Source of the DNA: Escherichia coli | GTDB taxonomy: Bacteria > Pseudomonadota > Gammaproteobacteria > Enterobacterales > Enterobacteriaceae | NCBI RefSeq assembly: GCF_003334355.1 | Contig: NZ_QOWP01000077.1 | Length of the DNA stretch: 2,235 nucleotides | Direction: 5' to 3' (one strand) | In this document: positions 1 through 2,235 of the stretch, piece after piece | How positions within the stretch are numbered: the first letter of the stretch is position 1 | How the letters are laid out: the number at the start of each line of letters is the position of its first letter | Notes under the pieces: model-generated | Seen by the model: only the letters and a program-made list of their open reading frames with translations | Databases searched by the model: none | What the model was told of the DNA's origin: nothing | Made by a program: the position numbers and the translations under genes

Positions 1-159
1 AAACCAGACGGGTTAACGGCAGCAAAGAACCTTGCAGAGGCGTTCGAGCATTATAACGAATGGCATCCGCATAGTGCACTGGGTTATCGCTCGCCACGGG
101 AATATCTACGGCAGCGGGCCAGTAATGGGTTAAGTGATAACAGGTGTCTGGAAATATAG
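1..159 (+). CDS. insD: IS2 transposase OrfB (InsD), C-terminal 52 codons; 5'-partial at window edge
   Basis: Open frame 1 from position 1 to TAG at 157..159; the translation carries the [18 protein letters not shown] motif. Confidence 0.8.
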
Positions 160-170
160 GGGGAAATCCA
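130..170 (+). repeat. IS2 right terminal inverted repeat (inner boundary approximate)
   Basis: Terminal sequence ends in GGGGGAAATCCA at 170, as recalled for the IS2 right end; it overlaps the OrfB stop codon. Confidence 0.65.
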
Positions 171-244
171 ATGAACACCTCCCTCTCGAGATTTTTAAAC
201 AAAGCACATTGAAAAATAAATCTCTCTGGGATTGAATTATTCAT
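171..244 (-). pseudogene. 5' stub (24 codons, MNNSIPERFIFQCALFKNLEREVF) of a small gene, probably ymgC, interrupted by IS2; the frame reads on into IS2 with no stop before the window edge
   Basis: Minus-strand ATG at 244..242 preceded by a good Shine-Dalgarno (GAGG, plus 250..253, 5-nt spacer). The position, downstream of ariR on the same strand, is where ymgC lies in the K-12 ycgZ-ymgABC operon. I cannot confirm the YmgC N-terminus from memory. Confidence 0.4.
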
Positions 245-356
245 GTCAGCCTCGTAGAAATATTAACCCAATAAAATTATGCTGTGTATAGTCTAAAGCG
301 ACAGACAAAAATAAGATGAATGAGTTTTCTATAAACTTATACTTAATAATTAGAAG

Positions 357-623
357 TTACATATCATCAGCTGTGTATCGCAACACGATTTCCAGTGTTT
401 TTCTAATCACATCAGCTTTGAGAATATCACTTGTTGTTTCCAGGGAGTGTATCAGACTTAAGATAATATTTTTATTATTAACATTATCGCCTGAAAGCAT
501 TAAATTGGTGACAGCCTGCCCTAACACTGCTGACTCTTCTTCTAACAAATTACCCGAACTGCGAAAGTAACTTGCTAACGCTTTATCAGTTATTGCATTA
601 TGAATTGTAGTATCTTCAAGCAT
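357..623 (-). CDS. ariR: AriR/YmgB, small regulator of acid resistance and biofilm (88 aa)
   Basis: Complete 88-aa ORF with Shine-Dalgarno GAGAGG (plus 629..634) 5 nt upstream of the ATG. Length, sequence and operon position match the recalled E. coli AriR. Shares the L-G-x-x-V-T...N...K...L-E pattern with the ycgZ product. Confidence 0.9.
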
Positions 624-651
624 GGTAACCTCTCATCTTACTTATGAAATT

Positions 652-924
652 TTAATGTATTCTGTTTATTTTCTTACCATTGAACATACTTTTATTGTCA
701 GCTGTCGCTGTTCTTCGGTTTGGCCCTCCTGAATCACTATTGCTAAAATCACGAATTATGCTGTCAATTAAATCGCGTCGGAAAGCATCTTCCTCAGCCG
801 ATTTCATTACGAGTAATTGCTTAATAAGAGTCTGCAATGAAAAATTTATCTTCATGCGCAGTATCTGGAGCACCGCCTGGCCAGTAATTTCATATTTTAT
901 ACGTTCATTATCAGATGTCTTCAT
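652..924 (-). CDS. ymgA: YmgA, small connector protein of the ycgZ-ymgAB operon (90 aa)
   Basis: Complete 90-aa ORF lying 42 bp downstream of ycgZ and 28 bp upstream of ariR on the same strand. Contains a GQAV motif shared with AriR. Own Shine-Dalgarno is weak (GAAG); a 4-codon overlapping upstream ORF is described in findings. Confidence 0.88.
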   Translation of the reverse strand: MKTSDNERIKYEITGQAVLQILRMKINFSLQTLIKQLLVMKSAEEDAFRRDLIDSIIRDFSNSDSGGPNRRTATADNKSMFNGKKINRIH

Positions 925-966
925 AACGACTTCATAGCTAACCTGTTAAATAATCAGGCTGTTGCA

Positions 967-1203
967 TTATTCAAAAAGCAACCCAATTAGTGCATTATAA
1001 TGTTTCTGTTCCTCTTCCCCTGTCGCTTGTTCCAGTCGGCAAAGAAGTTTGGCACAAAGCGACTTTCGACTCAGATTACGTCCATCTTTCAAAATCTCAG
1101 TCACAATTTCCCCGAGAGTTTCCTGCTGAGTAGGCAAGTTAGCTTTTGCAAAGTAACGAGTGATTGCTCCCGCAGAATCTGAAGTCACTGAATTTTGATG
1201 CAT
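967..1203 (-). CDS. ycgZ: YcgZ, first gene of the ycgZ-ymgA-ariR operon (78 aa)
   Basis: Complete 78-aa ORF with Shine-Dalgarno AGAGG (plus 1211..1215) 7 nt upstream of the ATG. Clear similarity to AriR (YF...LGEIVTEILKDGRNLSRKSLCAKLLCRLE against [29 protein letters not shown]). Divergent from bluF as in K-12. Confidence 0.9.
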   Translation of the reverse strand: MHQNSVTSDSAGAITRYFAKANLPTQQETLGEIVTEILKDGRNLSRKSLCAKLLCRLEQATGEEEQKHYNALIGLLFE

Positions 1204-1259
1204 GCTACGCCTCTGTTAAAAATGTTAATCAATGTGAAGTGAGGTAACAATAGCAAACT

Positions 1260-1278
1260 TGTACGAAATATGTGTACA
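1260..1278. promoter_or_regulatory. Inverted repeat TGTAC-N9-GTACA, candidate repressor operator
   Basis: TGTAC at 1260..1264 and GTACA at 1274..1278 are reverse complements separated by 9 bp, about 57 bp upstream of the ycgZ ATG. Confidence 0.25.
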
Positions 1279-1297
1279 GAATGATAAATTAATTTTT

Positions 1298-1316
1298 TGC
1301 AATTAGTGCTAATGCA
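1298..1316. promoter_or_regulatory. Imperfect inverted repeat TGCAATTAG-TG-CTAATGCA, candidate operator
   Basis: Left arm TGCAATTAG (1298..1306) and right arm CTAATGCA (1309..1316) are reverse complements apart from a single-base indel. Confidence 0.25.
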
Positions 1317-1516
1317 TATAAAACAATGTGTTATGATAAAAAATATTGCATCATTTAACTGACAATCTATACAAGATTTTTCGCCAACTAGTGTTCAACT
1401 TTTTCCATTTTTTATCAATGTAAAGAAACGGTTATGTTTTGGTATTAAAAGAAAGACACAAGAAGATATGTCTGTTACCGTCTTACTCTCGCCTCACCCA
1501 TTACCCTGGATTGTTA

Positions 1517-2116
1517 ATGCTTACCACCCTTATTTATCGTAGCCATATACGTGACGACGAACCTGTCAAAAAAATCGAAGAAATGGTTTCGATAGCAAAT
1601 CGCAGGAACATGCAGTCTGACGTAACAGGGATCTTACTGTTTAATGGTTCTCATTTTTTCCAGCTTCTGGAAGGTCCGGAAGAACAGGTTAAAATGATAT
1701 ATCGGGCTATATGCCAGGATCCACGGCACTATAATATTGTTGAGCTGCTGTGCGATTACGCGCCTGCTCGCCGTTTTGGCAAAGCGGGAATGGAATTATT
1801 TGATTTGCGCCTGCACGAGCGAGATGACGTTTTACAGGCCGTATTCGACAAAGGCACATCAAAATTTCAGCTAACTTATGATGACAGAGCGCTACAATTT
1901 TTTCGTACTTTTGTCCTTGCAACCGAACAATCAACCTATTTCGAGATCCCTGCCGAAGACTCCTGGCTTTTTATCGCTGACGGATCTGATAAAGAACTTG
2001 ATTCCTGTGCCCTTTCACCAACTATAAACGACCACTTTGCCTTTCATCCTATTGTCGATCCCTTATCGCGGCGGATAATCGCTTTTGAAGCCATTGTGCA
2101 AAAAAATGAAGATTGA
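1517..2116 (+). CDS. bluF: BluF/YcgF blue-light antirepressor, N-terminal 199 aa only (intact BLUF domain, EAL domain cut off just after its signature); truncated by IS3 insertion, likely pseudogene
   Basis: MLTTLIYRSHIRDDEP...GILLFNGSHFFQLLEGPEEQV is a BLUF photoreceptor signature. FHPIVDPLSRRIIAFEAIVQ corresponds to the start of an EAL domain, but the ORF stops 5 codons later at the TGA (2114..2116) that is the first triplet of an IS3-type terminal repeat. Recalled full-length BluF is about 403 aa. Start placed at 1517 rather than the track's 1439. Confidence 0.85.
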   Translation: MLTTLIYRSHIRDDEPVKKIEEMVSIANRRNMQSDVTGILLFNGSHFFQLLEGPEEQVKMIYRAICQDPRHYNIVELLCDYAPARRFGKAGMELFDLRLHERDDVLQAVFDKGTSKFQLTYDDRALQFFRTFVLATEQSTYFEIPAEDSWLFIADGSDKELDSCALSPTINDHFAFHPIVDPLSRRIIAFEAIVQKNED

Positions 2117-2152
2117 TCCTACCCACGTAATATGGACACAGGCCTAAGCGAG
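2114..2152. repeat. IS3-type terminal inverted repeat (about 39 bp from recall; inner boundary approximate)
   Basis: Starts with the TGATCC typical of IS3-family ends (5'-TG...), abutting bluF codon 199. Confidence 0.65.
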
Positions 2153-2235
2153 GTTCTGGTTTTCAAATTGTTCCGGACTGAGGCCGCCACACCAACTGTG
2201 CCGCCGCCACCGATTGTAATCACATTCGATATAAT
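2144..2235 (-). CDS. IS3-family transposase OrfB, C-terminal fragment; 5'-partial at window edge
   Basis: Minus-strand frame open from the window edge to TAG (plus 2146..2144); the translation ends ...YNRWRRHSWCGGLSPEQFENQNLA. Confidence 0.7.
   Translation of the reverse strand, partial: YIECDYNRWRRHSWCGGLSPEQFENQNLA

Follow-up and report, generated by a model that had tools for sequence, protein, structure and literature searches.

The window, i.e. the whole 2,235-nt stretch of DNA analysed here, covers the bluF / ycgZ-ymgA-ariR-ymgC locus of E. coli, flipped relative to its orientation in K-12. Its central part was matched by megablast, under the same gene names, in nearly all of 5,426 complete E. 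coli genomes, and both gene order and spacing are those of the K-12 record. Three intact genes lie on the minus strand, namely ycgZ (967..1203, 78 aa), ymgA (652..924, 90 aa) and ariR (ymgB; 357..623, 88 aa), as identified from the list of open reading frames and from the annotation of strains PSS-12 and K-12, together with that of KD602 for ymgA and ariR and the published operon structure (PMC3509220) for ycgZ. Directly downstream of ariR, across a gap of 112 nt that is the same in K-12 and in the window, begins ymgC, of which the window holds a 5′ fragment (171..244, minus strand). In K-12 the ycgZ-ymgABC operon appears on northern blots as a single polycistronic mRNA with ymgC as its last gene, the ycgZ promoter is controlled by BluR, for which BluF acts as anti-repressor, and the occurrence of ymgC is restricted to some strains of E. 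coli (PMC3509220). Both domains of BluF contribute to the interaction with BluR. An Rfam scan of the window returned no family at the gathering threshold.

The 1,943-nt chromosomal core (GC content 0.38) is flanked by the ends of two insertion sequences (GC content 0.50), that of IS2 at 1-170 and that of IS3 at 2114-2235, and both elements direct their right ends toward the core, so that the window looks like a short, repeat-bounded contig of a draft assembly. At the IS3 side, bluF (1517..2116, plus strand) keeps 199 of its 403 codons: the encoded residues 1-199 are the same as in the full-length BluF of PSS-12, and the next codon is a TGA stop (2114-2116) supplied by bases 1-3 of the IS3 end. 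The IS3 end (2114..2235, minus strand) adjoins bluF and encodes the C-terminus of OrfB; in numerous E. coli genomes it has matches, at 94-98% identity, to the ends of elements annotated as 'IS3-like element IS3 family transposase'. Its orientation, which we take to be that of a right end facing bluF, was read from the sequence by comparison with the ends of IS3.

The strain therefore carries two IS insertions in one blue-light/Ymg module. What comes after the point of the bluF break (window 2113/2114, following ...AATGAAGAT) varies between assemblies: in one it is an IS3 left end (i.e. the opposite orientation), in another a different IS-like end (TGAAGTGGTCAAC...), and six contigs of unrelated assemblies terminate 1-2 nt beyond it (about 6597-6599 in their loci). 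Contigs encoding the 199-aa truncated BluF are heterogeneous at this position, where they show an oppositely oriented IS3, a different IS end or a contig break, and ymgC is intact in every one of them. This point in bluF may be a hot spot for insertion of IS3-family elements.

The IS2 right end and the ymgC fragment

The other boundary of the core is formed by the 3′ end of IS2 OrfB (InsD; 1..159, plus strand), consisting of 52 codons (1-156, KPDGLT...NRCLEI) and a TAG stop (157-159). The translation of 1-156 aligns with positions 250-301 of 301 in the NCBIfam model NF006918 ('IS2 transposase TnpB'), with E = 7.8e-32 and a score of 111 bits that lies below the whole-protein cut-off only because the query is a 52-aa fragment. 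Overlapping the end of this frame is the right terminal inverted repeat, IRR (130..170, plus strand; 41 bp, TTAAGTG...AAATCCA), with the sequence TTAAGTGATAACAGGTGTCTGGAAATATAGGGGGAAATCCA, which differs at one or two positions from other IS2 copies and of which the outer 11 bp (160-170) constitute the cleavage domain; its length, its ends (TTAA...AATCCA) and the 11-bp cleavage domain protected by transposase are as described for IS2 (PMC3299598). Across the whole of 1-170 the window agrees with the IS2 copy of PSS-12 at 169/170 nt, and with a copy named IS2 by PGAP at 164/170. The repeat abuts ATGAA (171..175), probably the right-hand member of a 5-bp duplication of the target site; this is the single copy present within the window, and both copies are seen in PSS-12.

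Position 163, the eighth of IRR from its outer end and hence inside the cleavage domain, is G in the window and C in each of the three other IS2 copies compared, a difference that could weaken the donor end in this copy of the element or could be a sequencing error. A hybrid outward promoter, combining a -35 hexamer within IRR (TGGAAA, 149-154) with flanking sequence, was considered and rejected, as the -10 hexamer at 17-nt spacing is TGAACA, a poor match; both hexamers were placed according to our reading of the description of Pjunc.

On the minus strand, 171-244 is identical to nt 1-74 of K-12 ymgC (b1167) at 74/74 nt and 24/24 aa, a match far beyond chance. The fragment comprises 24 complete codons (MNNSIPERFIFQCALFKNLEREVF) and 2 nt of codon 25, the N-terminus of K-12 YmgC being MNNSIPERFIFQCALFKNLEREVFMTHGY..., and its translation signals are conserved: a GAGG Shine-Dalgarno sequence (250..253, minus strand), as read from the sequence, lies 5 nt upstream of the ATG (244-242), and the 40-nt start region that includes GAGG-N5-ATG has no differences between the window and K-12. 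At the junction codon 25 changes from ATG to ATT (M25 to I). The full-length 82-aa YmgC frame is absent, since the reading frame departs from ymgC after codon 24, which makes the sequence at this locus a fragment of a pseudogene that does not count as a functional ymgC. A profile search gave 0 NCBIfam families for the full K-12 protein, and no Pfam match is on record for YmgC. YmgC is known to bind the kinase domain of RcsC (PMC6900184), and a fragment with 24 of 82 residues has presumably lost this function.

The same allele in E. coli PSS-12

A 160-nt probe spanning the junction is contiguous in one of the 5,426 complete E. coli genomes, that of PSS-12 (NZ_AP027697.1), in which window positions 1-2113 are matched in one piece with mismatches only at 163 and 251. 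The inserted element of PSS-12 measures 1,331 bp, possesses both IRL and IRR terminal inverted repeats, is flanked on each side by ATGAA and has the 3′ part of ymgC beyond it; in-silico removal of IS2 and one ATGAA yields a ymgC that equals that of K-12 at 249/249 nt. The two alleles share the insertion point, the orientation, the IS2 sequence variant and the ATGAA beside the ymgC 5′ fragment, and differ in that PSS-12 has C at IRR position 8 (G163 in the window) and an intact bluF. The structure in PSS-12 bears the marks of a genuine transposition of IS2 into ymgC, and it is from this genome that we infer what lies to the left of window position 1, i.e. the full IS2, the second ATGAA, the ymgC 3′ half and the exact stop codon of the hybrid reading frame described below.

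An earlier note on this DNA, made without database searches, had proposed that IS2 interrupts a well-initiated, ymgC-like minus-strand frame (GAGG, ATG at 244) after 24 native codons, and that this frame is the last gene of its operon. Each part of this proposal agrees with the present results: the element is identified as IS2 by its IRR, by the OrfB C-terminus and by the 1,331-bp element with 5-bp duplication in PSS-12, which shares the junction; the start region and all 24 codons are those of b1167, at 74/74 nt and 24/24 aa over 171-244; ymgC ends the operon, in line with the single mRNA of the northern blots (PMC3509220) and a spacing of 112 nt from ariR as in K-12; and, on the far side of IS2 in PSS-12, the sequence continues ymgC exactly.

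Two further features of PSS-12 may be recorded. Position 251 of the window, where PSS-12 differs by the only base within the 1,943-nt core, is C here and in K-12 (giving GAGG) and T in PSS-12, so that the Shine-Dalgarno sequence of ymgC in that strain reads GAAG. Downstream of ymgC, between its 3′ half and pdeG (2512-2565), PSS-12 has a 24-bp hairpin with 96% complementarity and a 6-nt loop, which may be the operon terminator or a REP-like element, and which the IS2 insertion shifts 1.3 kb farther from the ymgC start.

In the RefSeq annotation of PSS-12 (AABK13_RS05055 / RS05060 / RS05065) the ymgC halves are pseudogene fragments ('protein YmgC, incomplete'), the PGAP label on the equivalent of 171-244 being 'protein YmgC, incomplete, missing C-terminus', and the element is an IS3-family transposase with programmed frameshift (OrfA/OrfB); the annotation thus consists of two pseudogene fragments, with the chimeric ORF not called. 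The allele is an ordinary IS2 insertional pseudogene, and the same allele is already annotated in RefSeq.

The existence of this second genome bears upon two alternative accounts of the window. The first, that the contig ends are collapsed repeats and the join between ymgC and IS2 a product of mis-assembly, would suit a sequence that is bounded by IS2 (1-170) and IS3 (2114-2235) ends, as is typical of repeat-bounded draft contigs, and for which the ymgC-IS2 and bluF-IS3 junctions occur together in none of the 5,426 complete E. coli genomes; junction-pattern scans of species-representative genomes and of JGI metagenomes likewise gave 0 matches to the ymgC-IS2 junction. However, this junction sits precisely at the IS2 terminus (...AAATCCA) and is reproduced to the base in the independent complete genome of PSS-12, along with a complete 1,331-bp element that is bordered by a 5-bp duplication and beyond which ymgC resumes exactly, and a mis-assembly is on this evidence extremely improbable.

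The second account accepts the insertion as genuine and holds that it arose independently at the PSS-12 site, which would then be a local hot spot, and not through shared descent or recombination. The strains do differ at bluF, which is disrupted by IS3 in the window and intact in PSS-12; IS2 has repeatedly inserted in this locus in other strains, and its orientation agrees among the three loci that were compared; and the element is reported to prefer intrinsically bent targets (PMC3299598). Against this, the window and PSS-12 share not merely the site and orientation but also the IS2 variant (169/170 nt, for a variant that is 95.7% identical to a canonical-type copy), a single base separates the two strains over the 1,943-nt core, and a later insertion of IS3 into bluF is the simplest account of the difference between them. 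We consider independent insertion unlikely as compared with a common origin of the two alleles by descent or recombination.

The hybrid reading frame

As a consequence of the orientation of IS2, a fusion frame between ymgC and the element extends over 2..244 of the minus strand, with 81 sense codons: 24 from ymgC, one across the junction and 56 that lie antisense to IS2. Its translation is MNNSIPERFIFQCALFKNLEREVF followed directly by IGFPPIFPD...LPLTRLV, 81 residues in all and with no stop. Codon 82 starts at window position 1 and continues beyond the edge; the corresponding codon of PSS-12 is TAG, giving 81 aa, whilst in two other, more canonical IS2 copies the stop falls two codons later, giving 83 aa. 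Identity between the IS2 copy of PSS-12 and the copy named IS2 by PGAP is 95.7%, and since window 1-170 equals this less canonical PSS-12 copy at 169/170 nt, a length of 81 aa is the likelier. The description of the frame in the earlier note, as open from 244 to the window edge for 81 codons or more, can accordingly be both retained and refined to at most two extra codons (81 versus 83).

Reading into the right end of IS2 yields 12, 28 or 56-58 codons according to phase, the ymgC fusion using the longest of these, and a 57-codon open stretch inside IS2 is unremarkable. The fusion, used as a query against ~5.8 billion protein clusters, gave 935 matches, and the best 120 of these all carry a GFAPIFPD...TRLV(WA) tail, borne on 119 different N-termini and ending in ...LV in 82 cases and in ...LVWA in 37. 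The N-terminal partners are unrelated, to judge by their Pfam domains or source names (among them IstB, RHS, phage lysozyme, Arc and FimG-like), and the YmgC N-terminus is on none of these best 120 of 935 matches. The public chimeric ORFs thus resemble the ymgC fusion in their IS2-antisense tail (...LPLTRLV(WA)) and in having the same two ends, and differ from it in their N-termini and at the residue set by window 163, which is Pro here and Ala (from C) in all of the best 120 of 935 proteins with the IS2 tail, i.e. the G163 Pro variant is found in none of them. No gene on record was found for the exact 81-aa fusion, whether with the Pro of the window or with the Ala of PSS-12.

The idea that the 57-codon stretch represents a conserved gene antisense to IS2 was rejected, as the stretch has no start of its own, varies in length with phase, and is met only as a tail on unrelated N-termini. 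The tail is a mechanical by-product that arises wherever IS2 lands in the same orientation and phase.

Expected consequences and relation to other IS2 insertions

The best explanation of these observations, and one that is very probably correct, is that IS2 transposed into ymgC of the BluR-controlled operon, creating a pseudogene and, as a by-product, a hybrid reading frame. In the sequence of events proposed, IS2 (IS3 family, 1,331 bp) would have inserted between nt 74 and 75 of ymgC, duplicating the 5-bp target ATGAA and leaving 24 of the 82 ymgC codons still joined to their start signals. Because the transposase genes of IS2 run opposite to ymgC, the ymgC start reads into the right end of the element. 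Ribosomes initiating at GAGG-N5-ATG would then cross IRR, pass in antisense through the final 52 codons of OrfB and stop at most two codons past the window edge, and the product would be a chimera of 81-83 aa with 57-59 C-terminal residues set by the sequence of IS2 and not by selection on the peptide. Translation of the chimera from the native Shine-Dalgarno sequence and ATG is plausible.

Transcripts of the operon may similarly enter IS2 in antisense, and such read-in is also plausible. A simple scan identified no intrinsic terminator-like sites between ariR and IS2, or in 1-1500 as a whole, which is consistent with co-transcription of the four genes here, and none in the IS2 copy of PSS-12 when its antisense strand was scanned; promoter-like sites were not commoner than in shuffled sequence. 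The first few hundred bases past the fusion stop are, by a crude measure, C-rich and G-poor, and as the RNA in this region would also be untranslated, Rho is expected on the basis of its general properties to limit read-in, making Rho-dependent termination after the fusion stop likely.

Whether the fusion serves any function must be considered separately from its origin. The chimera might keep an N-terminal activity of YmgC, or antisense read-in might modulate expression of the IS2 transposase: the fusion ORF retains the native ymgC translation signals, no terminator-like site was found before IS2 or within its antisense strand, and YmgC is a genuine protein with a binding partner, the kinase domain of RcsC (PMC6900184). 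Set against this, the tail is dictated by the IS2 coding sequence on the opposite strand and recurs on at least 119 unrelated N-termini, 24 of the 82 YmgC residues are left, the allele is rare (1/5,426 complete genomes) and has no fusion gene call on record, the C-rich, G-poor stretches right after the fusion stop favour, by the crude measure used, early termination by Rho, and the IS3 insertion in bluF probably impairs derepression of the operon. With regard to this last point, since BluF is the anti-repressor of BluR and is cut by IS3, the operon may stay repressed or be poorly derepressed, and expression of the chimera becomes even less likely. A functional fusion is thus highly doubtful. 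The same very low probability attaches to the more specific proposal that the blue-light-, cold- and sigmaS-regulated ycgZ promoter directs synthesis of the 81-aa chimera and of antisense RNA over the 3′ portion of the transposase gene of IS2, which, if true, would link either the expression of the transposase or a new small protein to an environmental signalling pathway.

For annotation, the favoured reading, i.e. insertional inactivation of ymgC by IS2, means that the locus should be described as a ymgC pseudogene and that the ORF of 81-83 codons should not be called as a protein. More generally, a single IS2-antisense tail lies behind hundreds of 'hypothetical proteins' in public databases, which calls for caution in annotation pipelines. 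The ymgC and bluF insertions together indicate that the BluF-BluR-Ymg-Rcs module is decaying through IS activity in this strain, and the double lesion is of use in typing strains and in the prediction of their biofilm and Rcs phenotypes; beyond correct annotation, the ymgC insertion taken singly matters little.

The allele can be compared with other IS2 insertions in the same locus. In E. coli A8, IS2 (1250-2580 of the locus) lies in ymgC near codon 51, with a duplication of GAATC and a predicted 63-aa product that ends in a 12-residue IS-derived tail; in KD602 it occupies the spacer between pdeG and ymgC (1840-3170 of the locus), with a duplication of AGCAT; and in several other strains it lies within ymgA. 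The A8 and KD602 insertions are like that of the window in the identity of the element, its orientation relative to the operon, its length of 1,331 bp and the 5-bp duplications, and unlike it in their target sites and, for A8, also in the phase of read-in. In total the right end of IS2 is found inside the locus in at least 26 of the 5,426 genomes. A hot spot for IS2 in this locus was considered, but these counts are not clearly above what clonal relatedness, together with the presence of several copies of IS2 in each genome, would produce.

Comparison may also be made with the IS2 insertion mutations of gal and lac of the 1970s, which reportedly combined gene inactivation with polarity that depended upon the orientation of the element. 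The ymgC insertion resembles these mutations in the inactivation of a gene by IS2 and in possible effects on transcription through the element; however, because ymgC is the last gene of its operon, there is no downstream cistron of the same operon to come under polarity.
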